Positions 17,072 to 43,296 of a stretch of 60,595 nt of DNA are shown here, in pieces; position 1 is the first letter of the stretch, and each line of letters starts with the position of its first letter. Location: IMG/VR virus record IMGVR_UViG_3300042879_004465, positions 1 through 60,595 of that record; one strand, 5' to 3'. A model generated the notes under the pieces. That model was not told where the DNA came from and ran no database searches. It saw nothing but the letters and a program-made list of their open reading frames with translations. The DNA comes from a virus (Duplodnaviria > Caudoviricetes). A program made the position numbers and the translations under genes.

Positions 17072-18183
17072 GCAATTACGATTATAACAATTTGAATGTT
17101 GGAAGTTTGGATTACGCTACCATTAAATCCAACCTGATATCATTCTTTAAAAGATATCCACAACTTGCAAATTTTGATTTTGACAACGAAGCATCTTCTA
17201 TAAATTTATTTTTAGATATTTTGGCTGCTAATACTGCATATAATGGTTACTATTTACATTCGGTTTTGACCAATTCCTTCCCATCGACGGCCACTTCCAA
17301 AAAAGCCATGATGATGAATGCTAGTTTGTACGGAGCATTCATCGAAAATACTATTTCTGCAAGATGTGTGGCTACTTTAAAAAATACAAGCTCTTCTGAA
17401 GTTCCTGCTTTGAGCACTTTTACAGGGACAAGAACAAATGGAAGCCCTTGTTTTTTTTATAATACGGAAGCTATTCCCGTTACGGAGGGTGATAACACCG
17501 TCGCAGTAGAAATGATTTCGGGTAAAGGGGTATATGGATTTGCTCAATTTGATCCTGAAAAATTATATCTGGAATTGCCTTTAAACTACGATCCTACGGC
17601 AATATTGTTCTTGAACAGAGAAGTAGTGGGGTCTACTTATACAGATGTCTCTTGGACCCAAGTAAATAATTTTAGCAATCAAGTTGTTGAGAGTCTTGGA
17701 GGAAAAGTATTCACCGTTTTAAACGGAAAAGATGGATACTACGTTACTACAAATATTCCCGGGGCAATAGCTCCTAGCAATTCTGTTACAATAAAAGCAG
17801 TAGACTCGGATGGTAGTTTATCAAATTCAGCTACAATACTGAGATCAAGAGATTATTCTGGAGTTACTGTAGTGTCTCATACTACTCCCTCCGGGGGAAG
17901 AGACAATGCAACAAAAGATTACATAAAAACCTTTATACCTTACGCATCAAATACAAAAGATCGTTTGGTAACTCAATCTGATTACTTGGATGGGATATAT
18001 CAATATATATTGAGCAATGGAGTAACTACAATACAAAAAGAAGATATATCTGTCACATCTCCATCGGTAGGACAAATAAAAATTTATGTTAATGGACTTT
18101 CTTCTGCTTTGAGAGAAAATTTGATGGTAAATTATTTGGCTACAAGAAAAATGGTTGGAATTTCTCTGACATACGGTCAATAA
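17068..18183 (+). CDS. gp6: Baseplate wedge subunit gp6 (short, 371 aa)
   Basis: LDYATIKSNLISF, FDFDNEASSINLFLDILAANT.YN, NSFPSTA, SGGRD, RLVTQSDY. Confidence 0.85.
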   Translation: MSNYDYNNLNVGSLDYATIKSNLISFFKRYPQLANFDFDNEASSINLFLDILAANTAYNGYYLHSVLTNSFPSTATSKKAMMMNASLYGAFIENTISARCVATLKNTSSSEVPALSTFTGTRTNGSPCFFYNTEAIPVTEGDNTVAVEMISGKGVYGFAQFDPEKLYLELPLNYDPTAILFLNREVVGSTYTDVSWTQVNNFSNQVVESLGGKVFTVLNGKDGYYVTTNIPGAIAPSNSVTIKAVDSDGSLSNSATILRSRDYSGVTVVSHTTPSGGRDNATKDYIKTFIPYASNTKDRLVTQSDYLDGIYQYILSNGVTTIQKEDISVTSPSVGQIKIYVNGLSSALRENLMVNYLATRKMVGISLTYGQ

Positions 18184-18184
18184 C

Positions 18185-18805
18185 ATGCTAGTATTTTTCA
18201 ATAATAGTCCCGGAGCATCGACACCAGATTCTGTTGTCACGGGCATAAATCGCATTGTCGAACAAACATTATTGACTCTGCGATCTTTAAATCTTCCGGA
18301 AAAAAACTGGGATGGAGACAAAATCCAAGTTAAAAAACAATTGCCTAAATGGGTTCAAAACACTTATGATGAATATCCATCAAGAGCTCCGGTAGTAGAT
18401 TTTTTTATTAACTATTATCGTTGGATGTTTGATCTTGAAGAGGGATATGGATGTGGATTTTATCTAGAAAATTTAAGAAATTTATCAAATGTTCCTGATA
18501 AATTTTTACAAGGATATGCCGATATTTTATTTGCCGGGGAGTTGGATTTGGATGTGTACCCAGAATTAAAAAATAATTTTAGAAAATGTTTATTAACATA
18601 TCATAGAGATTATGTGAAAATAAAGGGTACGCCCGATGGAATGCGATTTATTTTAAAATCATTATTTGGAGCAACGGTAGCAGAAGTTAGCACTCAATAT
18701 GCCACTAACATCAAAATAATTACTGATATGGATTCAAATTATCAAAATTTATTTAAGTTAATAGCTTGTCCATTTTCATTTAATGTATCATTTGTTTCAC
18801 CATGA
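18185..18805 (+). CDS. Baseplate wedge gp7-like protein (short, 206 aa)
   Basis: QLPKWV...YP...VDFFINYYRWM and KIKGTPDGMRFILKSLFG match the gp7-like N-terminal core; follows gp6. Confidence 0.65.
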   Translation: MLVFFNNSPGASTPDSVVTGINRIVEQTLLTLRSLNLPEKNWDGDKIQVKKQLPKWVQNTYDEYPSRAPVVDFFINYYRWMFDLEEGYGCGFYLENLRNLSNVPDKFLQGYADILFAGELDLDVYPELKNNFRKCLLTYHRDYVKIKGTPDGMRFILKSLFGATVAEVSTQYATNIKIITDMDSNYQNLFKLIACPFSFNVSFVSP

Positions 18806-19269
18806 TTAATTTTTTTGAAAAATGCATGAACTTTGCCATGTCTTTGGCATCCAAGGGATTCACTGGGAAAAAAGTTTTGCCAGAGGCAAAAAAACTAAGA
18901 GCGTTGTCCTGTTTTGGAAATGAAGATATATCCCCTTGTCCCCATTTACTAAAAAGCAAACATTTTAAAACTCATTATTGCGGTGCCTGTGGATGCGGGG
19001 ACAAACCCCATACCCAGTTGACAATAGATGGGGAAAAATACGGAAAATTAGATTATCCTTATTTGATTTGTCCATTGAGCATGCCCGGATTTTCCAATTA
19101 TTCTCCAGCAAGCCCAAAAGAAGTGGCAGAAAACACAAGAAAGTCTCAGATAGAAATTTATGATATTATGAGACTTCAAAATATAAAAGTAACTTCTCCA
19201 GAACCAACTGAGGAAGAATATCAAATTTTTCAAAAATTATCAAAATTAGGCAAATCCCCATCAGCCTAA
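18802..19269 (+). CDS. Cys-rich putative metal-binding protein
   Basis: SCFG...PCPHL...HYCGACGCGD...ICP. Confidence 0.6.
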   Translation: MINFFEKCMNFAMSLASKGFTGKKVLPEAKKLRALSCFGNEDISPCPHLLKSKHFKTHYCGACGCGDKPHTQLTIDGEKYGKLDYPYLICPLSMPGFSNYSPASPKEVAENTRKSQIEIYDIMRLQNIKVTSPEPTEEEYQIFQKLSKLGKSPSA

Positions 19270-19272
19270 ATA
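19265..19272 (+). promoter_or_regulatory. Late promoter variant CCTAAATA for the neck genes
   Basis: 9 nt before the gp13 ATG. Confidence 0.65.
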
Positions 19273-19281
19273 ATTTTTGAA

Positions 19282-20082
19282 ATGGAACCAACAAACAAAG
19301 ACGAATTTATAGCCTATTGCAGAAGAGCTTTAGGGGAACCCGTAATTCAGGTAAACGTCGGGGCAACCCAAGCGGACGATCGTCTTACGGACTGCTTAAA
19401 TTATCTCACAGAAAAACATTTTGATTTCGTTCATAGGGCATTATTTTCTTATCAAATAACACAAAATGACATAACTCGCCAATATATTGATACGGCTACT
19501 CTCGGAGATGCTTTAGGTGCAACAGGCGGGTGGCCGAATGGCACCGATATATTGACAATTAGCAAGGTATATCCAATTACCTCGACCGTTGGAGATTACA
19601 TCTTTGACTTAAGATATCAATTGTCCATGCAGGATTTCTTTGGCATTTTCTTCAACCAAGGAATTGCCCCATACGGAGCTCTTGCAAATTATGAAATGGC
19701 AAGAAGCTATTTGTCTACAATTGAGTATACTTTTGCGTATCCTTGCTCTTATACATTCTCAAAGGCAACTCAGCGCCTTTTCTTGGAACTTTCAAAGGAC
19801 AGATTAAAGGTGGGAAACTATATTTTGCTTGAGGCTTATGTCGGTATCGACGTAGATCAATATCCAAGAATTTGGAGAGATAGAATATTCAAAAGATATT
19901 ACATTGCCATGTTGAAAAAACAATGGGCTCAGAATTTAATGAAATTTGCAAATGTACCATTGACGGGAGGAGCATCAATAAATGCGCCTGCTCTCATGGC
20001 AGATGCTTTAAGGGAAATACAAGAAATAGAAGATAAAATAACTCAAATGTACGAGCCGCCTCCTGACATGCAAATAGGATAA
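19282..20082 (+). CDS. gp13: Neck protein gp13
   Basis: YCRRALGEPVIQVNV, HFD, KRYYIAMLKKQWAQNLMKF, LTGGASIN, C-terminal YEPPPDMQIG. Confidence 0.93.
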   Translation: MEPTNKDEFIAYCRRALGEPVIQVNVGATQADDRLTDCLNYLTEKHFDFVHRALFSYQITQNDITRQYIDTATLGDALGATGGWPNGTDILTISKVYPITSTVGDYIFDLRYQLSMQDFFGIFFNQGIAPYGALANYEMARSYLSTIEYTFAYPCSYTFSKATQRLFLELSKDRLKVGNYILLEAYVGIDVDQYPRIWRDRIFKRYYIAMLKKQWAQNLMKFANVPLTGGASINAPALMADALREIQEIEDKITQMYEPPPDMQIG

Positions 20083-20083
20083 G

Positions 20084-20989
20084 ATGACAACTAATCCATA
20101 TTTTAATCAAGACGATCCTGGGCAACAAACCCTAATTGAGGATATCACGGTTGAGCTGATTCAAGGAACCGGGAGAGATATAGTATATGTTCCCCGTCAA
20201 TTCGTCAACATTGATAAAATATTTGGAGAAGACATTGCATCTAATTTCAGTGATTCTTATGTTATAGAAGCTTATGTAGAATCTTTCAGGGGATTTGACG
20301 GAACCGATATTGTTAATCAATTCGGCATCGAAGTAAAAGATAAACTTACTTTGGTTATGTCGAAAAGAAGATTTGAGGAGGAAATTACTGCATCAGTTCC
20401 TACGATAACAAGGCCAAGAGAAGGGGATTTAATATACTTTCCTTTGTCAAAAAGCCTTTTTGAGATAAACTTCGTAGAGCATGAAAATCCGTTTTATCCA
20501 ATTGGCAAAAGATATACTTACATGTTGACTTGTGAAATGTTTACATACAGTATGGAGAGAATTGCTACCGGAAACACGGCAATAGACGAAGTATACGATA
20601 CTTCATACAGAACTTTTTACGACATGCTTCTTCCCGGGCCGAGTGGCGCAACATATTTCCACGAAGGCCAATATGTACAACAAACAGGAGGTTCTGGCGG
20701 ATTGGGTCTCATATCCAACTGGAATGGAAACGCAAATGTTCTCACCATCAACATTCTTTCCGGAACATTCAGCCCAGCATTCGCTTTCCAAGTTCTGGGA
20801 GACACCGGAGGGGTATATCCAACTGTCGGTGCTACTTTCACTTCAATCGTGGCGAATCCCAACAAGTATCCTTCATACGGCACAAGCAAGACCCTCAAAG
20901 GAAACAACGAAGACATCGAGCAAGAAAGATTCTCCGACAACGTTGTGTCCTTCGATGAAAACGATCCATTCTCGGAGGGCAACTACTGA
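20084..20989 (+). CDS. gp14: Neck protein gp14
   Basis: NPYF, GRDIVYVPR, IFGED, QFGIEVKD, RPREGDLIYFP, LFEINFVEHENPFY, C-terminal FDENDPF. Confidence 0.93.
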   Translation: MTTNPYFNQDDPGQQTLIEDITVELIQGTGRDIVYVPRQFVNIDKIFGEDIASNFSDSYVIEAYVESFRGFDGTDIVNQFGIEVKDKLTLVMSKRRFEEEITASVPTITRPREGDLIYFPLSKSLFEINFVEHENPFYPIGKRYTYMLTCEMFTYSMERIATGNTAIDEVYDTSYRTFYDMLLPGPSGATYFHEGQYVQQTGGSGGLGLISNWNGNANVLTINILSGTFSPAFAFQVLGDTGGVYPTVGATFTSIVANPNKYPSYGTSKTLKGNNEDIEQERFSDNVVSFDENDPFSEGNY

Positions 20990-22479
20990 TGTTTGGATCA
21001 TATTACTATGGGGAATATTTAAGAAAAGTTGTAATAGGGTTTGGAACTTTATTCAATAATATTTACGTGGAAACTCCCGACAACGGAGTTAACAAGCAAG
21101 TTCGTGTTCCATTGACTTATGCCCCGAAAGAAAAATTTATAAGAAGATTGCTTGAAGAGTCTTCTATTTCCACTGATACAAAGGTAGGAATACGATTACC
21201 TCAACTAAGCTTTGCGATAAGCCAAGTTGCTGTCGATTCTTCAAGAAGAAGAAACAAGGTCAACAGAGAGATTTATGGAGTAGATGGTTTTTTAGGAAAA
21301 CAAACTTTTGTAGAAGTTCCAATAAACATAAATTTTAACTTGTTTATGTACACCCGTCACATAAACAATACTTTGCAGATAACTGAACAAATTATTCCAT
21401 ACTTTAATCCAGAGTTTAACATAAAAATAAACTTTGGAAACAATAGAGATGATATTACAATTCCTTTGGTGATGATCAATGGAATAAACATCAATGAAAA
21501 ATACGATGGAAATTTTGGAGACAGAAGAATAAACATTTCTAGCATTGGTTTTGTCGCAAAAGCGTACATGTTTAGTCCAGCACAGCCAGTCAGTTTAATT
21601 CCAATAGTAGAAAATTTTGATTTGGATGTTGATGTTGATGTTGATGTTTTTCCTGAGCCACCGCCTAGTCAGTCTTTCCCCAATCCTCCGAGTGGACTGT
21701 CCGTTCTTAGTTTCACAGGAACGGGTGCTACACTTGGATGGACGGACGATGCTGGATCTTTCGGTGAAGATGGCTTCAAGATTTACTACTATGAGGCAGG
21801 AAGCGTTCCTCCAGTCGTTTCTGATTTCTTGCTCATCAGCGGAAACACCTACGTACTCGGAGCAACTGCCCCTGCATTGGAAGGCATTGGGAATGTATCT
21901 CAATTCATTGGAAGTTTGAACCAAGGAGAAACGTATTCTTTCGTTGTTACTTCTTACATAGATGCAGGAAGTTCCGGATATGCAGGACCAGTAAGCATTT
22001 TTACGCCGGGGCCTCCAGCTACTCCAACAGCATTGTTCGTGTCGAGCTTTACTGGCACCGGAGCCACTTTGGGTTGGGTAGATCAAGCATCGGTGCCAAC
22101 AGAAACCCAATTCAAGATTTATTATTACGAAACCGGAAGTGTTCCTCCAGTTTCATCGGACTTCTTGCTCATCAGCGGAAACACCTACGTACTCGGAGCG
22201 ACTTATCCGGCTCAGGCTGGAACGGGCAGCGTAACAGGTTTCATAGGGAACCTAAACGACGGGGAAACATATTCGTTCGTAGTTACTTCGTTCAACGCCG
22301 TGGGAAGTTCCGGATACGCAGGACCAGTAAGCATCTTTACCCCGGGCCCGCCGGATACTCCAACAGGATTAAGAATCGTAAGCTTCACTGGCACGGGAGC
22401 AACTCTGGCTTGGATTGATTCGGAGAGTGCTCCAATTGAAACTGAATTCGTAATTTACGTATACAATCATCTATATTAA
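20989..22479 (+). CDS. gp15: Tail terminator / sheath stabiliser gp15 fused to about 2.4 FN3 repeats
   Basis: LRKVVIGFGTLFNNI, VPLTYAPKEKF, LPQLSF, QITEQIIPYFNPEF. After a DVDVDV/PEPPP linker come 112-aa FN3-like repeats (P..L.V.S.T...ATL.W...L..GETYSFVV.S....G.S). Confidence 0.9.
   Translation: MFGSYYYGEYLRKVVIGFGTLFNNIYVETPDNGVNKQVRVPLTYAPKEKFIRRLLEESSISTDTKVGIRLPQLSFAISQVAVDSSRRRNKVNREIYGVDGFLGKQTFVEVPININFNLFMYTRHINNTLQITEQIIPYFNPEFNIKINFGNNRDDITIPLVMINGININEKYDGNFGDRRINISSIGFVAKAYMFSPAQPVSLIPIVENFDLDVDVDVDVFPEPPPSQSFPNPPSGLSVLSFTGTGATLGWTDDAGSFGEDGFKIYYYEAGSVPPVVSDFLLISGNTYVLGATAPALEGIGNVSQFIGSLNQGETYSFVVTSYIDAGSSGYAGPVSIFTPGPPATPTALFVSSFTGTGATLGWVDQASVPTETQFKIYYYETGSVPPVSSDFLLISGNTYVLGATYPAQAGTGSVTGFIGNLNDGETYSFVVTSFNAVGSSGYAGPVSIFTPGPPDTPTGLRIVSFTGTGATLAWIDSESAPIETEFVIYVYNHLY
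21625..21648 (+). repeat. (GATGTT)x4 microsatellite at the gp15/FN3 junction
   Basis: Four exact GATGTT units encoding DVDVDVDV. Confidence 0.85.
21685..22476 (+). repeat. Tandem 336-bp repeats encoding FN3 domains (2 full, 1 partial)
   Basis: Units start at about 21685, 22021 and 22357; a 38-nt identical block lies at 21826-21863 and 22162-22199. Confidence 0.9.
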
Positions 22480-22488
22480 AGGCAAAAT

Positions 22489-23883
22489 ATGTCACACATC
22501 GTAAACTACAATAAAAATACACACGATTTATATTTGTATAACGCAGATCCTATCATAGATCGACAAAATCCTTTGAATAATACTTATGAAATGCCGATAG
22601 GATTTAATCCAAATTTTTGGTTAAATCAAGATGAATTTGGCTTTACTGCTTTTAATTTAGATTTTACTGGAGTTGCATTAAGATTTAGAGGTGGGAGTAG
22701 ATGGCAATCAGAAAATAACGCTCCAAATATTGTGCAATTTCATGGATTATCTGGCTTCGGTTTTGGGCAGAGTAATAATGCAGCATTGATGCTTGATGTA
22801 TTTAATAATGGTCTTCCTATAGGAAATTTTTCTATAGTTGAAAATTATAATTTTTGGAACAATATAGGAATACCTGCAGTTTTAATTAGCCCACAACATG
22901 TTTTAGCCGGTGGGCACATGTTTTTAAGCGAGGCTGCTTTTTCGGTTCCAGAATATGATCCAAATCCTTGGAGAGGAACTACTTTTGCAGAATTTGTATT
23001 TTTAGGGACAAATGGAGTAACCTACTCTAGAATTGGTAGATTAAAAATAGCTTTTGGTTCTATGCTTGGGTTCGGACCGCAACCACAACTTGAGGAAACG
23101 GTTGAGCCTTTTTATACTTATAATATTTTTCCTGAATTGGGATTAAATGAGGAAAATTTTTCTCTACTGGCAGGAGACATGCATTTAATTGAGTTGGATA
23201 CTCCTTTTACGGAAGAAGAATTGCAATTTGTTAAAATTTATAAAATAATAAATTATGCATCTTCCCAACTCTCATCTAACAGTAGTTTTACTATAACTTT
23301 TAATCCTCAGAGTATAATTACAGTACGAAATGCAAATGGAACTGAAAGTTTTTTTGATGAAAATTTATTTGACACAACTTGGTCTGGTGTTCCTTTTTGG
23401 GGATATGAAAATGTAGATGCTACAGGTATTATAAGTAGTCAAGCAAATATTTCTGGTTTTACTCCTGTATATGGAGATAGTTTAGCCGTACTTTTAAAAT
23501 ATCATCCGGGATTACAAGAATTGTGTTTTTATAAATTTATTAATGGAGATGGTCGGTGGACGATATCAAGAGGCTCTAAAAACGATCCAGAAAGTGCCGC
23601 ATATAAAGAATCCAAAATTTGGAATGCAGTCAAAAATTATATACAGCAAACTTGTGGGTATACCATAACATTAATAGATAACTTTACAGAAACTGATAAT
23701 ATTGAAATTGATGGATTGGTATACACAAAAGGAGTTACGCTTTCTGCAAATGCAGGCATAGGCGGAATGACATATTTTTACGGAGGGCTGACTTCCGGGA
23801 ACACTTATTCATTCTTAGTAACTGCCAGAAATGCAATAGGATATTCCGGTTACGCCGGTCCTACAGGATTCAGAACTCCTTAA
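22489..23883 (+). CDS. Trypsin-like serine-protease-fold protein ending in the C-terminal half of an FN3 domain
   Basis: AVLISPQHVLAGGH (His motif), GDMHLIELD (Asp motif), YGDSLA (Ser motif, GDSG variant). The last ~63 aa align with the second half of the gp15 FN3 repeats. Confidence 0.6.
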   Translation: MSHIVNYNKNTHDLYLYNADPIIDRQNPLNNTYEMPIGFNPNFWLNQDEFGFTAFNLDFTGVALRFRGGSRWQSENNAPNIVQFHGLSGFGFGQSNNAALMLDVFNNGLPIGNFSIVENYNFWNNIGIPAVLISPQHVLAGGHMFLSEAAFSVPEYDPNPWRGTTFAEFVFLGTNGVTYSRIGRLKIAFGSMLGFGPQPQLEETVEPFYTYNIFPELGLNEENFSLLAGDMHLIELDTPFTEEELQFVKIYKIINYASSQLSSNSSFTITFNPQSIITVRNANGTESFFDENLFDTTWSGVPFWGYENVDATGIISSQANISGFTPVYGDSLAVLLKYHPGLQELCFYKFINGDGRWTISRGSKNDPESAAYKESKIWNAVKNYIQQTCGYTITLIDNFTETDNIEIDGLVYTKGVTLSANAGIGGMTYFYGGLTSGNTYSFLVTARNAIGYSGYAGPTGFRTP

Positions 23884-23895
23884 TGGAATTAAATA

Positions 23896-24342
23896 ATGGA
23901 AGACGTGAATAAAAATCTTGAATCGTTTTTTGAAATAGAATCCTCGAATCAAAAAATAGAAACCACAAAAACAGCAGGAACGACATCTTCTGCAACTCAG
24001 GATTACGAGTTCGCAAGAAACAACCTAAGATCCCTAATTTCAAACGGATCTCTTGGATTGGAAGGAATAATGAAGGTTGCCTTGGAATCCGACAGTCCAA
24101 GGGCATACGAAGTCTTGGCAAATACGATCAAGACTTTGGCTGAGATAAACGTGAACTTGATGGATGTTTCCGCCAAGTTTGCAGAGACCAACAAAGTGAA
24201 CGTAAAGAACACCACGAACAATTCCATATTCGTTGGGACAACCAAAGATTTGCAGAAATTGCTAAAGAAAGAAAACAATTTTGTTGAAGGTGAATTAAAT
24301 GAACAACCAGCAAAGCGGCTATCGAGCCAACCCGAATCTTAA
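23896..24342 (+). CDS. gp16: Terminase small subunit gp16
   Basis: DYEFARNNL, ESDSPRAYEV, NNSIFVGTTKDLQKLLK; upstream of gp17. Confidence 0.88.
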   Translation: MEDVNKNLESFFEIESSNQKIETTKTAGTTSSATQDYEFARNNLRSLISNGSLGLEGIMKVALESDSPRAYEVLANTIKTLAEINVNLMDVSAKFAETNKVNVKNTTNNSIFVGTTKDLQKLLKKENNFVEGELNEQPAKRLSSQPES

Positions 24343-25960
24343 AGCTCCGGGAATAAATCTAAACTATACCCAAGAGCAACTTGAAGATTACATAAAGTCT
24401 GCAAAAGATCCGGTTCACTTCATAGAGAAACACGTAAAAATTGTCACTCTGAACTCTGGTCTTTCTCCGTTTCTTTTGTATGATTACCAAAAAAGATTCA
24501 TAAACGAGATTCACAACAACAGGTTCGTAATCTCTAAATTTCCTCGTCAAAGCGGAAAATCCAGCTGCGTGCTCGGATACATAAATCACTACATAAATTT
24601 TCAACCAGACGTGAAAGTGGCGATTCTCGCAAACAAGCAAAAGACGGCAACCGATCTATTCTCAAGATTGCAAATTGCATACGAAAATCTTCCTCAATAT
24701 TTGCAGCAGGGAGTATTGGAATGGAACAAGACTTCCTTGAAACTTGAGAACGGATCTTCCGTTGTCTGTGCTGCAACATCTGCATCAGCAATCCGCGGTG
24801 GTTCTTACAATCTTTTGCTTTTGGACGAGTTTGCATATCTTCCGCAGAACATCGCAGAAGAATTCTATGCATCTACTTATCCGACAATTTCTTCGGGTAC
24901 AACCTCAAAAATCGTAATAGTATCGACGCCACATGGGCTGAACCACTATTACAATCTGTGGGTGAACGCAAAAAGACAGCCCGGCCATCCATTGAAGAAC
25001 AAGTTTGTCCCGGTGGAGATCAGTTGGAGAGAAGTTCCGATGTATCCGGGCGGGCCTTTAAGAGGGGAAGATTGGAAGCAAGAAACAATAGCAAATACAA
25101 GCGAGGAACAATTCAATCAAGAATTTGAATGTTCTTTCATCGGGTCTTCGAATACTCTTGTGTCCTCCTCTAAACTCAATATTCTTGCCCCGAATGACCC
25201 AGTCGAGCAGACAATGGATGGTATCAGAATTTTTGAGCAACCGGATGAGAACAAGACATATTTCTTGTTGGCCGACGTTTCAAGGGGTCAAGGAAACGAC
25301 TACTCCGCTTTTACGGTCGTAGAAGGCTCACAGATGCCCTATAACGTCGTTGCGACCTACCAGAACAATACCATAAGCCCCTTTGCCTATCCGACCGTTA
25401 TAAAGACAATAGCGGAAAAATACAACAATGCCTATGTCATGGTTGAGGTGAATGATGTAGGGGGCCAAGTATGTTCCATTCTTTACAACGATCTTCAATA
25501 CGAGAACATGTTGATGACCCAAACTAGAGGAGTCAAAGGTCAAGTTTTGTCCCAAGGATTCGCCAGAGGAAAGTCCGAAATGGGCATTCGAACCACTGCC
25601 CAAACCAAAAAAATTGGCTGTGCCGTATTGAAGAGATTGGTGGAAGAAGACAAACTTCTGCTGAATGACGACAGAATCATAAGAGAGCTGATGTCTTTCG
25701 TATCAAAATCAAATAGTTTCCGGGCAGAGGATAGCCAAACGGACGACTTGGTAATGTGTTTGGTATTCTTTTCTTGGTTAACGAGACAGGAATATTTTAC
25801 GGATTTGATAGAAACAGCAAAAAATAAATATTCGCAGAACGATTCAATTTCTCCAGAAGATGACAACGTATTATTCATGATGGGAAACAAAGAAAAAAAT
25901 TCAGATGAAATCCCTCCAGATGGCTTATCGGACGGAAATTGCGTATGGTTTTCGGGCTAA
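24299..25960 (+). CDS. gp17: Terminase large subunit gp17
   Basis: Walker A PRQSGKS, Walker B LLLDEFA, VSTPHG, QEFECSF, nuclease DVSRG...DYS, DDLVM. Confidence 0.97.
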   Translation: MNNQQSGYRANPNLKAPGINLNYTQEQLEDYIKSAKDPVHFIEKHVKIVTLNSGLSPFLLYDYQKRFINEIHNNRFVISKFPRQSGKSSCVLGYINHYINFQPDVKVAILANKQKTATDLFSRLQIAYENLPQYLQQGVLEWNKTSLKLENGSSVVCAATSASAIRGGSYNLLLLDEFAYLPQNIAEEFYASTYPTISSGTTSKIVIVSTPHGLNHYYNLWVNAKRQPGHPLKNKFVPVEISWREVPMYPGGPLRGEDWKQETIANTSEEQFNQEFECSFIGSSNTLVSSSKLNILAPNDPVEQTMDGIRIFEQPDENKTYFLLADVSRGQGNDYSAFTVVEGSQMPYNVVATYQNNTISPFAYPTVIKTIAEKYNNAYVMVEVNDVGGQVCSILYNDLQYENMLMTQTRGVKGQVLSQGFARGKSEMGIRTTAQTKKIGCAVLKRLVEEDKLLLNDDRIIRELMSFVSKSNSFRAEDSQTDDLVMCLVFFSWLTRQEYFTDLIETAKNKYSQNDSISPEDDNVLFMMGNKEKNSDEIPPDGLSDGNCVWFSG

Positions 25961-25974
25961 ATAACTTCTAAATA
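25957..25974 (+). promoter_or_regulatory. Tandem late promoters (CTAAATA x2) for sheath paralog A
   Basis: CTAAATA at 25957-25963 and 25968-25974. Confidence 0.65.
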
Positions 25975-25992
25975 TCATAGAAAGACAAAAAT

Positions 25993-27981
25993 ATGGGATT
26001 AGAACCTCCACAAATCACTTTAGGCAACGGGACACTTAACGCTTTTAATTTTTTTCCAACTCCAGCGCAAGTTACCGAACCGAGCCAAGATAGAAATAAA
26101 AGATTTGTCTGTGGATTTGTGATGGGGTCTGCTAATCCTAGTAGTGGTAGCGGAACGGGGTGTGGTTTGTTTGCAGCAATTAATAAAATTAGTGACCCAT
26201 TTGGCAGCGGTGACGTTGCTGGACTTAATATACTTGCTTCTACTACAGAATTTTTTAACCCACATACTCTTGGGGGAGTCATAATTAATGCATATGTAAT
26301 TGATTCTATATCTTCCTTAAAAACAATACTTAATAAAATTAATAACAATATAAATTTAGGTTTGTGGAACATCGATCCTTCAAGAACAGTTTCGCCCGGG
26401 CCGAATCCAACAAATCAAGCCCTTTATACCTCTTTGACTGAAAATTTATATTTTGGCGCGTATACAGGAAAAAACAATGTAGATCCAAATCAGGATGGAT
26501 TTGCAGATCAAACAGCTGATTGGATGGGAAATGGAATAACCGCAGCTTTTGGATTTTCTTCTGTTTCTACTCCTGACACCGATTTAGCGCAAATAATAGG
26601 AAACGATGGAGCAGCCTCAAGGGCCGGAGTAGAATTATATGCTTTGCTTCATTTTTTAAAATACGGAGGAGTGGCTGTTATTGCGCCTAGATATCATGAA
26701 TTATCCCTTATAAAAGACGGTTTTAGATATCCTAGTAGTTCTGGCTTTCCTTTAGATCCAGAACGTAACAACATTGGCGCTCTATTCAATAATAGAGGAT
26801 TAGATGCAATCGTTACTTTAGAAGGCGGATCAATGTTAACTGGGGTAGGGCTCACCGGAAATCAAACAAATGATGCAATGATTTATGGTGGAGCATATTA
26901 CGAAGGGGCCGGAGCGCTAGGTCAAGTATACAACAGAACGCAAGGATTATTGCCGGAGCATTTGGGAAATACTTTTGCCGGTCTTGTTTATAAAGGAAAC
27001 ATATTTTCTTCCATAGTGACCGATATACTTTCACCATCTTATCTGCAGATCTTCCATGCCGGGCTTTCCGGAACATCTTTTGGATATCAACAAGAATTCG
27101 GAGCTGATCCAGCTACAGTAGGAGTCTTTAGACATCCATCAACCGATGGTCGGCCTTTCAATTTCAGAAAAAAAACTACTAGTATTTCATATCCCGGAAA
27201 TCCAAATGCATCAGTGACTGGTCTAACAGGAGGCATACTCAATTCAAATCAATTGAACAGTTTGGTATGCGTCGGCGGAAGAACCCTGACAAAAACTTGG
27301 TGGACAACTACAGGAACTCCACAGGGAGCAGTAGTGGGCGGAGGCGCAGACGGATCATATTGGATTCCGAAATTGGATGTAATTGAATTTGCCGGGTCAA
27401 TGAATACCGCTCTGCAGCAAACTACCGGAAACTACATGCTTTCTTCGAACATCGGAGGATCCATTCCCGTCTCAGACGGTGTTCCCAATATGGCTCAATT
27501 AATAACAAGCACTAGATATTCCTCTACGTCTTTTGAATTGTTGGAGGATTTAGCCGCAAAAAGAATAAACACAATTTGCTCTAATTCGCCTACCCATTTC
27601 CCGACAGACTATGTCGGCGCAACCGGTGCAATAGGAACACCAAATACCACTCTATTGAATAGAAGATATGCTCAAGCCATACATGGCTATGCATATCAAA
27701 CGGCTTTCAGAGTTTTGGACGAAATAGTAGGCACTAACGTAGTAAACAATTCGGCAACACGCGCACAAGTGGTAACCGCAATTACTGATGCTTATAACAG
27801 TTCTAATTTCAATTCATATCTTAGAGAAAATTATGTAATTACATGCGATACTACCAACAACAGCAATAACTCAACAATGCTTACTGTAGGCATTACCGTT
27901 AAGCCCGCTGTTTTCACCATAAATAGCCCAACAGGAGGGCAGCTAATATCTGACTTCAATATTATCATAACTCTATCATAA
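25993..27981 (+). CDS. Highly divergent tail sheath (gp18-like), paralog A
   Basis: Occupies the gp18 position. FLKYGG motif; C-terminal KRINTI...NRR...NNSATRAQV...YVITCDTTNN...LTVGITVKP matches the sheath C-terminal domain. Confidence 0.7.
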   Translation: MGLEPPQITLGNGTLNAFNFFPTPAQVTEPSQDRNKRFVCGFVMGSANPSSGSGTGCGLFAAINKISDPFGSGDVAGLNILASTTEFFNPHTLGGVIINAYVIDSISSLKTILNKINNNINLGLWNIDPSRTVSPGPNPTNQALYTSLTENLYFGAYTGKNNVDPNQDGFADQTADWMGNGITAAFGFSSVSTPDTDLAQIIGNDGAASRAGVELYALLHFLKYGGVAVIAPRYHELSLIKDGFRYPSSSGFPLDPERNNIGALFNNRGLDAIVTLEGGSMLTGVGLTGNQTNDAMIYGGAYYEGAGALGQVYNRTQGLLPEHLGNTFAGLVYKGNIFSSIVTDILSPSYLQIFHAGLSGTSFGYQQEFGADPATVGVFRHPSTDGRPFNFRKKTTSISYPGNPNASVTGLTGGILNSNQLNSLVCVGGRTLTKTWWTTTGTPQGAVVGGGADGSYWIPKLDVIEFAGSMNTALQQTTGNYMLSSNIGGSIPVSDGVPNMAQLITSTRYSSTSFELLEDLAAKRINTICSNSPTHFPTDYVGATGAIGTPNTTLLNRRYAQAIHGYAYQTAFRVLDEIVGTNVVNNSATRAQVVTAITDAYNSSNFNSYLRENYVITCDTTNNSNNSTMLTVGITVKPAVFTINSPTGGQLISDFNIIITLS

Positions 27982-37220: not shown

Positions 37221-37697
37221 TTATTCGAATGCGTAGTAAGAATAAGAGAAAGTAGCTGTAGCTTTCAAAGGAGCCGAATCGTTTGAATCGGATCGGAAAG
37301 GAATTCCGCTAAGGGCAACCGGAACAACATAATAGAAAGCAATGTTCATGTTGGGAAAATAATTTGATCCAAGAATTGTAAGATTTGCGCTGGTCGCCCA
37401 TTGATTGTATGGAACATTGCTAACGTCATCTGATATATTTCCGATTTGCTTCATCCAATCAAAAATGCTTTTCCAATTCTCCAAATTTTCGTCAATCAAA
37501 AACTCAACTCTCAAAGGTTCAAACGTAAAAGTATTGACTGCCACTGGGATTTGAATGCCCAGAATGGTAGGCTGGGGCTGGGTGTTCAATTGAATTCCCG
37601 GAAGAGCAACAGTCTGGCAAAACAATTTTATGTTTTCGCTGCCTTTGTTTATGCTGAAGTTGTAATAGTTTGTCTGTAATTGATTGATATTTGTCAT
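37221..37697 (-). CDS. gp3: Tail completion / tube terminator gp3
   Basis: FCQTVALPGI, FEPLRVEFLIDENLENWKSIFDWM, PVALSGIPF, ATATFSYSYY. Confidence 0.88.
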   Translation of the reverse strand: MTNINQLQTNYYNFSINKGSENIKLFCQTVALPGIQLNTQPQPTILGIQIPVAVNTFTFEPLRVEFLIDENLENWKSIFDWMKQIGNISDDVSNVPYNQWATSANLTILGSNYFPNMNIAFYYVVPVALSGIPFRSDSNDSAPLKATATFSYSYYAFE

Positions 37698-38308
37698 TTG
37701 AGATAATCTTCCGGATTATCCGACCAACTTCTCGGATCAGATGCTTCTTCTTCTGGATTGTACGGCAATTTCAATTCTTCTATTTTGGACTTGCGTTTCT
37801 TTGATTTTTTGGGCTCTATTTCTTTTTCCCATTCCTTTTCAAGTTCTTCCGCTTCATCTTCGTCCAGTTCTGCATTTTCAGCAAGATGATCGTCAAACAT
37901 GTCTTGCAAAAATTCTACGAACTCTGGATCTGAAAACATGTTCCAAGCGAGTTCCATAGTGTCTGGTTCTTCTATTTCTGCGGCCATTATTTCTTCACTC
38001 ATTCCATTCATAAATTTTATGTAAGCATCGTACATTCTTTGTATGTCCTCTACCGGACTTGAAATGTACATGATGTACTGCTTCAATATTGTTATTTGCT
38101 TGTCTTGCACATTTCCTAGGTAAGAAGTCAATCTGACGCATTCCACGACATGACCTTCTTCATTGGAAGTGCTGTAAACTACGATTTTAGCCGGGTCCGT
38201 CAGAACCACTTCATTTTCTTTTTCTTGTACTATGGCGACTACTTCTTCGCCAGTTGTAAACTTGACTACTTTGACGGACGATGAAGCTTGGTGATTTGTT
38301 TCTTCCAT
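37694..38308 (-). CDS. Sm-like-fold protein with acidic tail (uvsW neighbour in T4-like phages)
   Basis: VKVVKFTTGEEVVA N-terminus; acidic C-terminus; SD AGGAGG and late promoter ATAAATA (38325-38331, minus strand). Confidence 0.6.
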   Translation of the reverse strand: MEETNHQASSSVKVVKFTTGEEVVAIVQEKENEVVLTDPAKIVVYSTSNEEGHVVECVRLTSYLGNVQDKQITILKQYIMYISSPVEDIQRMYDAYIKFMNGMSEEIMAAEIEEPDTMELAWNMFSDPEFVEFLQDMFDDHLAENAELDEDEAEELEKEWEKEIEPKKSKKRKSKIEELKLPYNPEEEASDPRSWSDNPEDYLK

Positions 38309-38343
38309 GCTTCCTCCTTACTAATATTTATTTTTAACAAGTT

Positions 38344-39840
38344 TTATAATTTTATCTTGAATGCTTTGTAGTCAAATTTTTCTTTTTCGTATATCTTGAC
38401 TCTTTGTTCAAAATGCTTGAATACGTGATTCTTGTGCTTTTTCCAAGAAAGATCATCTACTAGATCGAATACTTTCAATGTTTGTTTTCTTTCGGATGTT
38501 CTTAGACCGCGTCCTATGCTTTGAAGCAATCTTATTACTGATTTAGTAGGAGAAGCAAAGATGATATTGTCAAGATGAACGATGTTGATCCCGGTGCTCG
38601 TAGTGCCAAAAGAAGCAACGAGAATGGCATTCTTTTCTCTGTCGATGATTTTCCTAATAGTTTCTCTATTTTCTGCGTCAGTTTTCCCCGAAATGAAATA
38701 TACGTTTTTATCGGGATGTCGTTTTTGAATGAGATCATAAAGTGGTTTTCCGTGCTTTTCTACGTAATTGAACAATACCAAAGTATTGCCTTCGGTTTCC
38801 CCGCAAAGTTTGGATATGAACTCGTTTCTGTCTAAATTTTCTACGAGTAACCCCATTTCTTCCTGATACTTCAATTTTTTGCAGCTATTCCGCATTTCGT
38901 CCGGATAATCCAAAATTATGCAGTCTATGGCCAATTTTGCCAAGACTCCCTTACCTATTAGCCCCTTCGTCGTTATAAACTGAATGGAGGGCCCTAGCGT
39001 GCCCTCTATTGAGAGCTTATGCGCCAAGGTCTGATCGAGCGTCCCGGTCGTTCCGAGCCTAAACCAAGCCTCTGTGAGCTTTTTACCGATGTTTACGAGA
39101 GAGTCGGCCTTGACCAAATGACACTCGTCAAAAATTACGGCATCAAACTGGTCAAACCAAGTTTTTGGAAGTTTGTATACCGATTGCCATGTAGAAACGA
39201 CCAATGGCTTATTGGTGTCCTTTTCTTTACCCGCAGTAATTTTATGCAAAAATTTGGTTACTGACCAATTTTTGTTTTTTCTAGAATAATCAAAAAAGTC
39301 TGCTTCCATTTGCTGGACCAGACCTACCGTGGGAACCAATAACAAAATTTTTTTGGGAGCCTTTAAGCAGTATCGCAATAAAAATCGAATTATCAAATAT
39401 ATGATTAATGATTTTCCGCTTCCAGTAGGAGATACTATTACAGATCTGCAGCTTTTTAAAGCATGTATGACCGCCTTTTTTTGGTGGTCATGTGGATTTA
39501 CTTCTTGGTTTTTTACGGTGACGTTCAATGTTTTGAAAAAACTGTCAAAAATGGTTTCATCCATTTCTACGGTTTTTGTATCTTTTTCGTCAAAAATTAA
39601 ATAATAGTTTCTTTCGTCACAAAATTTTTGAAGATACGTCTTCAATCCTCTTGGAAGAGTGGAGCTGTTTATTTCGTATAATTTTATTTTGCCATCCCAA
39701 ATACGAGATTTGTATAATGGCATGTATTCTGCGCCAGGAACTTTAAAAGAAAAATAAGATCGTAATTCTCTTTTTACAGAATCTTCACAATCAATTTTAT
39801 ACTTAGTGTTGTCTTCCGCAGACGCAATTACAGTGTACAC
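38344..39840 (-). CDS. uvsW: UvsW SF2 helicase
   Basis: WDGKIKL, SPTGSGKS, STWQS, DECH, GTTGTL, STGINI, RLLQSIGRGLR. Confidence 0.96.
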   Translation of the reverse strand: MYTVIASAEDNTKYKIDCEDSVKRELRSYFSFKVPGAEYMPLYKSRIWDGKIKLYEINSSTLPRGLKTYLQKFCDERNYYLIFDEKDTKTVEMDETIFDSFFKTLNVTVKNQEVNPHDHQKKAVIHALKSCRSVIVSPTGSGKSLIIYLIIRFLLRYCLKAPKKILLLVPTVGLVQQMEADFFDYSRKNKNWSVTKFLHKITAGKEKDTNKPLVVSTWQSVYKLPKTWFDQFDAVIFDECHLVKADSLVNIGKKLTEAWFRLGTTGTLDQTLAHKLSIEGTLGPSIQFITTKGLIGKGVLAKLAIDCIILDYPDEMRNSCKKLKYQEEMGLLVENLDRNEFISKLCGETEGNTLVLFNYVEKHGKPLYDLIQKRHPDKNVYFISGKTDAENRETIRKIIDREKNAILVASFGTTSTGINIVHLDNIIFASPTKSVIRLLQSIGRGLRTSERKQTLKVFDLVDDLSWKKHKNHVFKHFEQRVKIYEKEKFDYKAFKIKL

Positions 39841-39850
39841 AAATTATTTA

Positions 39851-40288
39851 TCATGAAATTCCATTTACCAATTTGTTCCAATCAATAGCGGACTTGATTG
39901 CAAAATTTCTGTTGGAAAGAACTTTGATAAAATCTTCCACCATTTTTACTTTTATTTCTGCAGTGTTGATGTCGTTTTTAATTTTTAAAAGAGTGGGGTC
40001 AGCATCCATGAAACGATCTATGTCGGTTTTCATTATCTTTAGCTCAAATGGTTCTTCGCCCCATTTTTCCAACTCTTCTTGGCTTGCCTTGCCGTTATAT
40101 ACCATCCACTTTCTCAATTCCATTACGGACAGTGCATTTCTTAATTTTTGTAGTTCGGTCTTAAGATCTGCATGTATTGAAAGATACTTTCCATGCACTG
40201 AAGGAGTTCTTAAAGACTCTTTAGCTAACTCTGTAGAGTCTATTAAAGAATCCTTTTTAATTTCCTGTTTAAGGTCTTCTAGATTCAT
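39851..40288 (-). CDS. uvsY: Recombination mediator UvsY
   Basis: KDSLIDSTEL..ESLRTPSVHGKY, YNGKA, NRNFAIKSAIDW. Confidence 0.93.
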   Translation of the reverse strand: MNLEDLKQEIKKDSLIDSTELAKESLRTPSVHGKYLSIHADLKTELQKLRNALSVMELRKWMVYNGKASQEELEKWGEEPFELKIMKTDIDRFMDADPTLLKIKNDINTAEIKVKMVEDFIKVLSNRNFAIKSAIDWNKLVNGIS

Positions 40289-40297
40289 TATAAGTAT

Positions 40298-40361
40298 ACT
40301 ATAGAGTATCTTTAAGGGGTTGTCAAGAAATACTTGACAACTTTGTGAAAAAGTGTATAAT
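40298..40361. promoter_or_regulatory. Divergent sigma70-like promoters for uvsY (-) and the glycan island (+)
   Basis: Plus strand: TTGACA(40334)-N16-TATAAT(40356). Minus strand: TTGACA(40326)-N17-TATAGT(40303). The two -35 boxes form TTGTCAAG-N5-CTTGACAA. Confidence 0.75.
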
Positions 40362-40389
40362 AGTGTAAAATCTTTTTAAAGTCGAAAAT

Positions 40390-41067
40390 ATGATTATAGA
40401 TTTAAGAAAAATTCAAACGGTATGGATTAATCTTGACGGCGCAACCGGAAATGCTCAAATTATGGAGCACAGATTCGGCATTCATAATTTTGAAAAAACA
40501 TACCGAAAATCGGCAAGACAAATAGCTCCGCCTCACGGAACACCGGATACAATTAAGCATTACGTAGGCTGTGCTCAATCTCATATTGATATTTTGGAGG
40601 ACACAAATTATTCGTGTCCTCTTTTAATTCTTGAAGATGATGCCGAGTTTACTCAAGACTTTCATCCTATGATTGAAGTTCCCGACAATACGGATGCGGT
40701 GTATCTAGGAGTATCTTCCGGTAATCCTCATTATTTGTCCAAGAGAGTAAACAAATATTTTCTTAGAATTGGAAAAATTTTGGCTACTCATGCTATTTTG
40801 TATTTGAATCCCGATTACAGAAAAGCGGTTGCAGACATTGCAAAAGTGTTTGCTTACAGATTAAAAATTCCATTTGACAATGGCTGTGCATTGATTCAGG
40901 AGAGATTCAATGTAATTACTCCCAACACTCCATTCTTTGTACAGGCAAACCAAAGACAAAGCGCAAATCAATGGGAAGCGGTGACATCAAAGCCCTTGGT
41001 TGACAAGAATAGCGATTTTCCTGTCAGAGAAGAAAACGTACAGCTAGGAATACAGGTGCCAGTATGA
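40390..41067 (+). CDS. Glycosyltransferase, GT25-like
   Basis: WINLD, GCAQSH, LILEDDA, ATHAILY. Confidence 0.75.
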   Translation: MIIDLRKIQTVWINLDGATGNAQIMEHRFGIHNFEKTYRKSARQIAPPHGTPDTIKHYVGCAQSHIDILEDTNYSCPLLILEDDAEFTQDFHPMIEVPDNTDAVYLGVSSGNPHYLSKRVNKYFLRIGKILATHAILYLNPDYRKAVADIAKVFAYRLKIPFDNGCALIQERFNVITPNTPFFVQANQRQSANQWEAVTSKPLVDKNSDFPVREENVQLGIQVPV

Positions 41068-41852
41068 TTGGAATGACAAATTTAGGAAATAATGGTAGAT
41101 TTGGAAATCAAATGTTTCAGTATGCCACGCTATACGCGCTTGGTAAAGAACTAAACTATGAAATTGGAATTCCGTATTTAAATAAAAGTAATGATGACTA
41201 TTTTAATTTTTGTCTACCAGAGTGTTTTTCATTATCGGCAAAAGATTTAAAGGGCCATTATTTTTCATCTTATTATCAAGAACCTCACTTTTCTTATGAT
41301 ACTAATATTAAAAATATTCCTGATAATACAAATTTAAAAGGATATTTTCAAAGTGAAAAATATTTTAAAAATTGCAAAAATGATTTAATGTTTAAAGAAT
41401 TTAATTTTAATAACGAAATTAAAATAAAAACAAAAAAATTATTAAACGGAAGAGACTCAGAATTAATATCAGTACACATTAGACTGGGAGACTATTTAAA
41501 ATTTCAAGATTCTCATCCAATATGTTCTACTGACTACTATAAAACAGCAATCCAAATGCTACCAAGCGATGCAAATATTATGCTTTTTAGCGACGATTAT
41601 AGTTTGGCATTACCATTTTTTAAAGATTTGGGAATAAAAGTTTTTGCATGTGGTACAAATAATAAATTTATAGATATGTGTTTAATGACACAATGTGAAT
41701 ATCATATAATTGCAAATAGTTCATTTAGCTGGTGGGGTTCTTGGTTAAGCAATAGCAAAAAAACAATAGCACCAAAGCAATGGTTCGGTACAGCACCACA
41801 TATGCCAAAAATTTGGAATGATGTTTATGCAGAAGATTGGATTGTAATATGA
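41064..41852 (+). CDS. GT11 alpha-1,2-fucosyltransferase-like protein
   Basis: GRFGNQMFQYA, GYFQSEKYF, SVHIRLGDY, FSDD, IIANSSFSWWGSWL. Confidence 0.92.
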   Translation: MIGMTNLGNNGRFGNQMFQYATLYALGKELNYEIGIPYLNKSNDDYFNFCLPECFSLSAKDLKGHYFSSYYQEPHFSYDTNIKNIPDNTNLKGYFQSEKYFKNCKNDLMFKEFNFNNEIKIKTKKLLNGRDSELISVHIRLGDYLKFQDSHPICSTDYYKTAIQMLPSDANIMLFSDDYSLALPFFKDLGIKVFACGTNNKFIDMCLMTQCEYHIIANSSFSWWGSWLSNSKKTIAPKQWFGTAPHMPKIWNDVYAEDWIVI

Positions 41853-42787: not shown

Positions 42788-43296
42788 ATAATTTTATAAA
42801 TAAAATAGACTCAGCTCTTAAAAATTTAAATTTTATTGATTTGGATTATTTAAAAAAAATAGTATTAGACACCAAATCGGAAATTATTATATTAGGAAAC
42901 GGTGGCAGCAACGCTATTTCGTCTCATATAGCCGAAGACTATACAAAAGCGTTAAAGAAAAAAGCAATTGCATTTACAGACGGTGCTAGGCTAACATGCT
43001 ATTCTAATGATTATGGGTATGAGAATGCATTTAAACAATATCTATCAGAATTTTCCACAAAAGATAGTCTTGTAATTTTAATAAGCTCTTCTGGAAATTC
43101 TCAAAATATTTTAAATTGTGCTGAATATTGCCTTGAAAACAAAATTAAATACATTATTTTTTCAGGTTTTAAACAAAATAATTGTTTAATAACAAAATAT
43201 GCAGACCAATCATTGTTAAATTTTTGGGTAAATTCCGACGATTACGGTGTTGTTGAATGTATTCACGAAATTATTTTACACTCGGTAATATCATGA
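42784..43296 (+). CDS. gmhA: SIS-domain phosphoheptose isomerase, GmhA-like
   Basis: GNGGSNAISSH, SNDYGYE, ISSSGNSQNIL, VECIH. Confidence 0.85.
   Translation: MNNFINKIDSALKNLNFIDLDYLKKIVLDTKSEIIILGNGGSNAISSHIAEDYTKALKKKAIAFTDGARLTCYSNDYGYENAFKQYLSEFSTKDSLVILISSSGNSQNILNCAEYCLENKIKYIIFSGFKQNNCLITKYADQSLLNFWVNSDDYGVVECIHEIILHSVIS

Follow-up and report, generated by a model that had tools for sequence, protein, structure and literature searches.

Immunoglobulin-like (Ig-like) folds that are left incomplete by one polypeptide and completed in trans by a neighbouring subunit are known from the chaperone–usher pili, where donor-strand complementation and exchange build very stable non-covalent chains. 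In cellulosomes, cohesin–dockerin pairing allows multi-socket scaffolds to hold exchangeable enzymes and carbohydrate-binding modules. Fragments of an engineered human fibronectin type III (FN3) domain, a monobody, were reportedly found by Dutta and coworkers in 2005 to reassemble with high affinity after a cut in the C–D/C′ loop region, the same region as in the locus described here. The insulin receptor and IGF-1R carry an insert in the C–C′ loop of FnIII-2. The insert domain of the insulin receptor contains the furin site at which the chain is divided (PMC7039211). The closest phage system is the baseplate of the Lactococcus phage Tuc2009, in which the C-terminal β-hairpin of BppU completes the β-sheet of BppA domain 2 to give a composite similar to a titin domain (PMC4742702). 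Here, we analyse a stretch of 60,595 nucleotides (IMG/VR record IMGVR_UViG_3300042879_004465; hereafter the window), which is part of an uncultured T4-like myovirus. In this stretch, an FN3 domain is divided between the neck protein gp15, which ends in strands A-B-C (the socket), and the product of the next open reading frame (ORF-X), which ends in strands C′-E-F-G (the plug). It appears fairly probable that the two halves form a two-chain plug-and-socket joint that tethers a variable serine hydrolase to the phage neck.

The locus shares features with several of these systems. As in Tuc2009, a phage accessory protein would be docked by one Ig/titin-like β-sandwich made from two polypeptides, and the docked part would be an exchangeable host-surface module. 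The completion of an Ig-like fold in trans recalls the chaperone–usher pili. An FN3 domain with a large insertion, the two parts of which end up on two chains (α and β), is shared with the insulin receptor and IGF-1R. The literature searched, outside which most subscription journals lie, contained no account of phages that dock proteins through a naturally split FN3 domain.

Division of an FN3 domain between gp15 and ORF-X

All 569 stop-to-stop frames in the window were searched by phmmer with the complete second FN3 repeat of gp15 (112 aa) as the query. Positions 1–39 of the repeat match the gp15 tail with a domain expect value (E) of 5.1e-11, and positions 48–110 match the last 63 residues of ORF-X with a domain E of 2.4e-13; thus, the two pieces are complementary and the C–C′ loop alone is missing. 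No other of the 569 frames gives a match below E 0.8. The gp15 coding region (20989–22476) ends with TEFVIYVYNHLY (…EFVIYVYNHLY), and the reading frame is the same across the junction, which consists of the gp15 TAA (22477–22479), the spacer AGGCAAAAT and the ORF-X ATG at 22489. Both halves are recognizable by sequence, the first (A-B-C) with the strand-B Trp in the gp15 tail and the second (C′-E-F-G) with the strand-F Tyr-x-Phe/Val-x-Val motif in the ORF-X tail. For the half-domains, we used separate hidden Markov models (HMMs); since orphan C halves predominate, an iterated model of the full-length FN3 domain had converged on the C half. With the half-domain HMMs, the order of halves in gp15 is N C N C N. 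A family profile matches only the second halves of solved FN3 domains, for example those of titin (1.1e-13) and Dscam, and Pfam fn3 is found in seven of the 19 ORF-X family members. The initial annotation had proposed, from the letters of the window, that FN3 halves stand at the ends of gp15 and of the next ORF and that an in-frame TAA and 9 nt separate the two ORFs; phmmer and the half-domain HMMs agree with the former, and the latter holds at the coordinates given above.

Homologues of ORF-X number eight in a collection of 5.8 billion proteins (82–31% identical), with 48 hits in a representative library, and all family members begin at the same Met. Searches of the phage collection gave no match to the region or to ORF-X (DNA in distant mode, and protein). 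IMG/VR gave no match with ORF-X as a single-protein query, and relatives were found there with an alignment query. DNA was recovered with alignment queries for nine loci; the query of the metagenome scan was an alignment of nine sequences. At all eight loci at which a homologue of ORF-X is accompanied by a visible upstream gene, the upstream gene ends in an orphan A-B-C half and TAA, and the ATG follows 1–11 nt on. The seven FN3 strands do not lie on one polypeptide at any of the eight, as the stop and the new start fall between C and C′. These loci are the window, L001, L002, L003, L004, L005, L007 and L008, which represent six distinct loci and five junction types, and their ORF-X proteins are 26–47% identical. 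The carrier of the socket varies. It is gp15 in the window, L001/L002 and L008, a 109-aa protein that itself consists of a plug and a socket in L003/L004, a 112-aa protein of the same plug-plus-socket build in L007 and a 170-aa protein in L005. Additionally, a gp15 relative with 78% identity (P0055) likewise ends in A-B-C followed by a stop. The cut is old and conserved.

Selection on both halves and exchange of the core

Compared with L008, the ratio of non-synonymous to synonymous substitution rates (dN/dS) is 0.071 for the whole of gp15 and 0.17 for the socket, where nine synonymous and six non-synonymous changes fall in 36 codons. Among the last six gp15 codons, which follow strand C, nine of ten changes relative to L008 are non-synonymous. 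The plug differs from that of L001 by four synonymous and no non-synonymous changes. The core aromatic residue of strand B is kept in 16 of 16 orphan sockets, as Trp in 14 and as Phe in two. This residue is buried in a whole FN3 domain and would be exposed in a lone half; its retention in all 16 sockets therefore means that a residue buried in the whole domain is preserved in the lone halves. Judged by these patterns of change, both halves look selected.

The region between the conserved ends of ORF-X behaves differently. The window is 96–97% identical in DNA to L001/L002 over 18000–22698 and again over 23632–27000, whereas no DNA similarity is detectable over 22699–23631, which encodes residues 71–381 of ORF-X. 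In near relatives, the plug is 94% identical to that of the window while the core is 35% identical (P0004), or 81% against 26% (P0007). On these identities, the plug goes with the lineage of the socket and not with the cargo. In this slot, the core is replaced between near-identical phages, yet it always belongs to the same protease-like family. The description of ORF-X as a swappable enzyme in the initial annotation is thus correct for the exchange of the core, but the exchange stays within one family. Such exchange is what would be expected of a part that meets the host surface.

Sockets and plugs in other phages

About 12 library proteins start at residue 3–4 with an FN3 second half and continue into varied cargo. 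The 64-kb contig G001 contains five sockets and five plugs, distributed over anchors, an adaptor and cargo genes (Table 1). Cargo of another family, which the initial annotation had suggested looking for, does not occur in the slot next to gp15; other cargo types are attached to the same kind of plug in other phages. For example, longer ORF-X variants of 728–750 aa (L003 6001–8187; P0009, P0013 and P0017) have an esterase-like domain after the plug, and PF13472 is found in two of the 19 ORF-X family members. This esterase-like domain hints at action on a host surface polysaccharide. Counted with the half-domain HMMs in contigs of 60–65 kb, the orphan sockets and plugs are balanced, with five of each in G001 (5:5) and one of each in both the window and G002 (1:1).

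Members of the ORF-X family also occur with other ends. In L009 (1561–3012), an ORF-X-like protein that shares the N-terminal motif and has a GDS motif terminates in a pair of tandem sockets where a plug would otherwise stand, and the next gene is a plug-first cargo gene; thus, the ORF-X family can serve as anchor as well as cargo. Residues 1–144 of ORF-X are common to longer proteins with other C-termini. Eight of these (P0021, P0024, P0025, P0027, P0028, P0030, P0035 and P0037; 560–940 aa) combine the ORF-X N-terminal region with a GDSG-type protease-like domain, and their C-terminus is formed by another conserved domain that contains no half of FN3. This domain may be an alternative means of attachment.

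The wider system would consist of anchors with one to three sockets and cargoes with an N- or C-terminal plug, and the cargoes would include carbohydrate-binding-like modules, an enzyme-like protein of about 900 aa and the esterase-bearing ORF-X. A broader proposal, which we take seriously without favouring it, is that of a general combinatorial connector, in which sockets, plug-plus-socket adaptors and plugged cargoes assemble by themselves on the virion of freshwater T4-like phages, forming branched arrays whose enzymes and binding modules can be exchanged. Plug–socket specificity would then set the place of each cargo, the shared FN3 DNA would be the site of recombination and the array would be a viral counterpart of the cellulosome.

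ORF-X as a putative serine hydrolase

In ORF-X, the conserved N-terminal region is followed by the trypsin-like core, then by a helix and finally by the plug. Near its start, Y7, N8, H12, D13, Y15 and P21 are conserved in the family. The positions of the triad residues had been predicted in the initial annotation at 22915 (His), 23176 (Asp) and 23479 (Ser), and these are confirmed as His143, Asp230 and Ser331. In the family alignment, the triad occurs in the order His-Asp-Ser within TAAH-like, D-x-x-L- and GDSG-like motifs. The third motif varies among the 19 members as GDSG (nine), GDSL (six) and GDSC (four). The GDSL of the window is therefore the variant of a clade (6/19) with an intact triad, and the loss of activity that had been raised as a possibility is not indicated.

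The AlphaFold2 (AF2) model of ORF-X has a predicted local distance difference test score (pLDDT) of 75.3 and a predicted template-modelling score (pTM) of 0.76. Each of the 50 best fold matches listed from the Protein Data Bank (PDB) is a trypsin-like protease or a complex in which one occurs, among them an umbrella-toxin particle, and the matches in BFVD are similar. Trypsin is also the family common to the ten best ESM Atlas feature hits, which score up to 0.92. The trypsin-like middle of ORF-X that had been proposed thus agrees with the conserved triad and with fold matches to trypsin-like proteins only, but the fold matches, which bear on the double β-barrel of the chymotrypsin/trypsin-like proteases (clan PA, family S1), are weak and ORF-X of the window has no Pfam match. 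The best PDB match has E 4.8e-4, the template-modelling (TM) scores do not exceed 0.41 and the root-mean-square deviations are mostly >9 Å. At E up to 1, ORF-X of the window matches zero Pfam families, and no trypsin family is found for it by PDB sequence profile. PF00089 is matched by one of the 19 members with E 0.051, below the cut-off, so the family is not assigned by a sequence model. On the basis of the model and the alignment, ORF-X is most likely a chymotrypsin-fold protein with an intact triad, that is, a serine hydrolase that would be borne on the virion and is probably catalytically active.

A separate observation from the ESM Atlas structure search is a cluster of viral proteins with a fold like the Atlas model of ORF-X (TM 0.39 by query), in which the dockerin family PF00404 is present in 86% of the members. 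As a lead only, this cluster may mean that protease-like proteins of phages also carry docking modules of a second type.

Docking model and alternative explanations

In the docking model, gp15 and ORF-X would be co-transcribed and closely coupled (stop, 9 nt, start). No terminator-like site is present in 21706–24400, and no notable promoter-like signal lies between the two genes; the T4 late-promoter word TATAAATA occurs at the level of chance (seven against 6.6 expected), with none near the junction. Stop–start coupling with no intervening terminator-like site would favour the assembly of neighbours. After translation, strands A-B-C of gp15 and C′-E-F-G of ORF-X would interdigitate into one FN3 sandwich. 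In a whole FN3 domain, strand C is flanked by C′ and F, and E is the partner of both A and B; the two pieces produced by a 3 + 4 cut therefore interlock deeply. ORF-X would thereby be tethered non-covalently where the gp15 arm ends, at the phage neck. Because gp15 of T4 forms a hexamer in the neck, as many as six ORF-X copies could be present. The model would entail physical complementation of the halves, a virion location for ORF-X and catalytic activity on a substrate.

A prediction of the complex between gp15 residues 353–496 and ORF-X residues 392–464 gave an interaction score from aligned errors (ipSAE) of 0.50 (0.45, 0.50 and 0.52 in the individual runs), compared with 0.00 for the best control, a partner pLDDT of at least 69 and a contact agreement of at least 84%. 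Of 80 solved complexes, 58 attained the mark used for grading, as did two of 110 mismatched pairs; at scores of 0.60 or less, only seven of the 80 solved complexes and both passing mismatches reached it.

Several points weigh against the docking model, in addition to the weak fold matches and the lack of a Pfam match described above. First, the complex prediction is graded as weak support, its first chain started ten residues into FN3 repeat 2 and its score may partly reflect the memory of the model for, or likeness to, solved whole FN3 domains. Second, AF2 draws the plug strands of ORF-X alone, with no socket present, at pLDDT 64–80, and a construct with read-through of the stop (22015–23880 of the window, X at the stop) reached a mean pLDDT of 65, with only 28–47 for the control FN3 repeat 2, and is thus uninformative in either direction. 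Third, the conservation of the plug DNA can also be explained by the breakpoints of recombination alone. Finally, regarding the counts, the balanced contigs are incomplete. CheckV gives 39% for G001 and 36% for G002, and the window has 60.6 kb compared with 138,815 nt for one contig with ORF-X. The visible halves are unbalanced in the short fragments L007 and L009, and the contig of L021 and L022 has two plugs against one socket in the two stretches examined. Among seven plug-first loci (five distinct), three lie directly after a socket and four after another cargo gene. The fragment-complementation docking of the initial annotation is nevertheless the best-supported reading on conservation, purifying selection and the balanced counts, while the complex prediction adds weak support.

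An alternative that we consider unlikely, but that deserves weight, is a recombination scar. Here, the FN3 DNA would be a landing pad for cassette swaps, the half-domains would be tolerated and unpaired, and ORF-X would be free or bound otherwise, for example by its N-terminal 70–144 residues. The breakpoints of the swap lie inside ORF-X, at about 22698 and 23632, and the N-terminal 1–144 region is also found on longer, plug-less proteins, both of which agree with a scar. The strands modelled in the plug without its partner, the weak complex prediction and the four of seven plug-first loci with no adjacent socket point the same way. However, the halves are recognizable (E 1e-12 to 1e-24) where the rest of ORF-X is only 26–35% identical and the carriers differ. 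Synonymous changes exceed non-synonymous changes in both halves, whereas the codons just past strand C vary freely, and the core Trp/Phe is retained in every orphan socket. The balanced numbers of halves in the three contigs also argue against a scar, as do the two or three sockets that stand in tandem, which have no obvious use as scars.

Read-through or recoding of the stop, which would give a single chain with the protease-like domain inserted in the C–C′ loop of FN3 repeat 3, is improbable. The product would resemble the insulin-receptor FnIII-2 insert before furin cleavage, and the chain-dividing furin site in the insert domain of the insulin receptor (PMC7039211) is a parallel in its favour. 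The junctions are in frame in the window, L001/L002, L005 and L007, that is, in three of the five junction types, with spacers of 9, 3 and 3 nt. They are out of frame in L008 (1-nt spacer), the gp15 DNA of which is 85% identical to that of the window, and in L003/L004 (11-nt spacer). The frame is thus not kept across relatives as in programmed read-through, and the out-of-frame junctions show that read-through is not the conserved mechanism. Additionally, all junction stops are TAA, the Met is kept at the same first position in every family member and a search for longer proteins found no fused gp15–ORF-X form, which is weak evidence. The read-through offered as a second option in the initial annotation accordingly fails as a conserved mechanism; a minor fused product may be made in this phage.

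The TAA itself is real and does not stem from an error. Three runs, each from a different study, have contigs that span the junction (X4 over 22338–22522, X5 over 22311–23900 and X6 over 22200–22560) with no listed difference from the window in 22279–22597, and the IMG/VR contigs L001 and L002 have the identical junction, so the check in other runs and relatives that had been called for returned the same TAA throughout. That one gene was split by a recent nonsense mutation, which had been the third option, or only seems split through faulty assembly or sequencing has the in-frame arrangement of the window as its sole support and can be dismissed with near certainty, since besides these identical junctions the same stop/start cut is present in divergent ORF-X relatives on different, unrelated carriers.

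Genome context

The runs holding this DNA are lake and other freshwater metagenomes, and no RNA run is listed among them. The gene order around the junction is gp13-like, gp14, gp15, ORF-X, gp16, gp17 and gp18 (Table 1), as in T4 apart from ORF-X; the terminase and tail sheath genes are named from their translations and order, and of these the small terminase gene alone has a family match, a weak one. Residues 5–202 of gp15 match PF16724 with E 1.3e-50 and 172.3 bits, compared with a curated cut-off of 25, and gp15 also matches Pfam fn3 (E 9.5e-11). With a score above the cut-off and the T4-like order of neck and terminase genes, the protein belongs to the T4 gp15 family, and its N-terminal 200 residues are a bona fide core. 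The nearest cultured gp15 is that of the Pelagibacter phage Mosig, with 39.7% identity over residues 1–204 only. None of 2057 matching records in the phage collection searched covers at least 80% of gp15; thus, the FN3 extension is absent from the cultured phages in that collection. The FN3 repeats have a GC content of about 0.50, which drops to about 0.30 in ORF-X.

Four further observations concern this part of the genome. The linker between the gp15 core and the first FN3 repeat (21600–21650) codes for a D-V-D-V-D-V-D-V run, and L008 and P0055 are variable here. A conserved Cys-rich ORF of 155 aa with several C-x-x-C pairs (18802–19269) lies just 5′ of the neck genes, and it is near-identical in L001 and recognizable in L008. 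The small-terminase-like and large terminase genes overlap by 44 nt (24299–24342) in different frames. Lastly, the 95.6% DNA identity between the window (25993–27981) and L006 (2644–3534) ends at 26117, after the first 40 or so codons of the tail sheath gene, which might also contain a swapped variable part.

Table 1. Features of the gp15–ORF-X region and of the related contig G001. Positions refer to the window unless G001 is named.
Feature	Position	Strand	Remarks
gp13-like ORF	19282–20082		Gene order
gp14	20084–20989		Pfam PF11649
gp15 (tail sheath stabilizer/neck protein)	20989–22479	+	496 aa; PF16724 core, two complete FN3 repeats, orphan first half
Two complete gp15 FN3 repeats (aa 231–339, 343–451)	21679–22341	+	N and C half-HMM matches (E 9e-17 to 1e-24) form pairs within a single chain
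Socket: orphan strands A-B-C of FN3 repeat 3 (gp15 aa 455–492)	22351–22464	+	N-half HMM E 2e-14; no C half downstream in chain; strand-B core Trp kept
Junction	22465–22488	+	Four variable gp15 tail codons, TAA (22477–22479) and 9-nt spacer AGGCAAAAT; ATG next
ORF-X	22489–23883	+	464 aa; conserved N-terminal region, trypsin-like core, helix, C-terminal FN3 second half
ORF-X residues 1–70, conserved N-terminal segment of phage backbone	22489–22698	+	97% nt identity to L001 (blastn)
Hypervariable swapped core (ORF-X aa 71–381)	22699–23631	+	With His-Asp-Ser triad; no DNA similarity to L001/L002
His143 codon	22915–22917	+	Motif LISPxH..GH; 19/19 members
Asp230 codon	23176–23178	+	Motif D-x-x-L-x-E-L; 18/19 members
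Ser331 codon	23479–23481	+	G-D-S (GDSL in window); G329, D330, S331 each 19/19 members
Plug: orphan strands C′-E-F-G (ORF-X aa 405–463)	23701–23877	+	C-half HMM E 7e-22
Small-terminase-like gene (gp16)	23896–24342		Weak PF11053 match, E 0.023, below cut-off
Large terminase (gp17)	24299–25960		Named from translation and gene order
Tail sheath (gp18)	from 25993		Named from translation and gene order
G001 row (L028–L031)	37655–43164 of G001		284-aa protein with three tandem sockets at end, then three plug-first genes
G001 plug-first cargo			899 aa, enzyme-like
G001 plug-first cargo			400 aa; plug, three whole FN3 domains, then socket
G001 plug-first cargo			271 aa, carbohydrate-binding-like
G001 adaptor			109 aa, plug and socket
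G001 ORF-X			728 aa; plug, then GDSL/SGNH-esterase-like domain

Comparison with known systems

If the halves pair, the joint would be a natural, genetically encoded split-domain connector. Variable enzymes would be bolted to a conserved structural protein without gene fusion, and cargo could be exchanged by recombination with the attachment left intact. This would explain the frequency of FN3 and Ig-like domains on phage surfaces. Annotators would gain a rule that links orphan half-domains into assemblies, and protein engineers would gain evolved, possibly orthogonal plug–socket pairs. A hypervariable serine-hydrolase-like protein at the neck of abundant lake phages would moreover point to an unrecognized interaction with the host surface.

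Regarding T4, the whiskers at its neck are made of fibritin and not of a protease-like protein, and the FN3 extension of gp15 distinguishes the present phage from T4 and from the cultured phages in the collection searched. The folds of cohesin and dockerin in the cellulosome are unrelated to the one described here and each partner is a complete domain, whereas here the partners would be two parts of one domain; neither a cohesin nor a dockerin family was found by Pfam among the proteins of the window. The insulin receptor folds as one chain and is then cut, whereas gp15 and ORF-X are two genes translated separately, which are out of frame in some relatives. In contrast to the engineered FN3 fragments, the split described here is natural and conserved, and it would connect the product of one gene to that of another.

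The chaperone–usher pili rely on a chaperone, an usher and a single donated strand, and they polymerise homologous pilins, whereas here four strands would be donated by heterologous cargo enzymes. The single missing G strand, supplied by an N-terminal extension, that characterizes these pili is not found, since the cut lies between C and C′; among the neighbours, gp14 and gp15 match phage neck families and the others are phage structural or packaging genes by translation and order, with no search made for chaperone or usher families. The joint would thus function in a similar way to these pili without belonging to their family. Finally, in the baseplate of the siphophage Tuc2009, the domain is nearly whole before a hairpin of two strands is added, and the composite was seen in the structure only. 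In the present locus, a canonical FN3 domain is cut 3 + 4 at the C–C′ loop, the halves are recognizable by sequence beside intact repeats, the setting is a myovirus neck and sockets occur in tandem.

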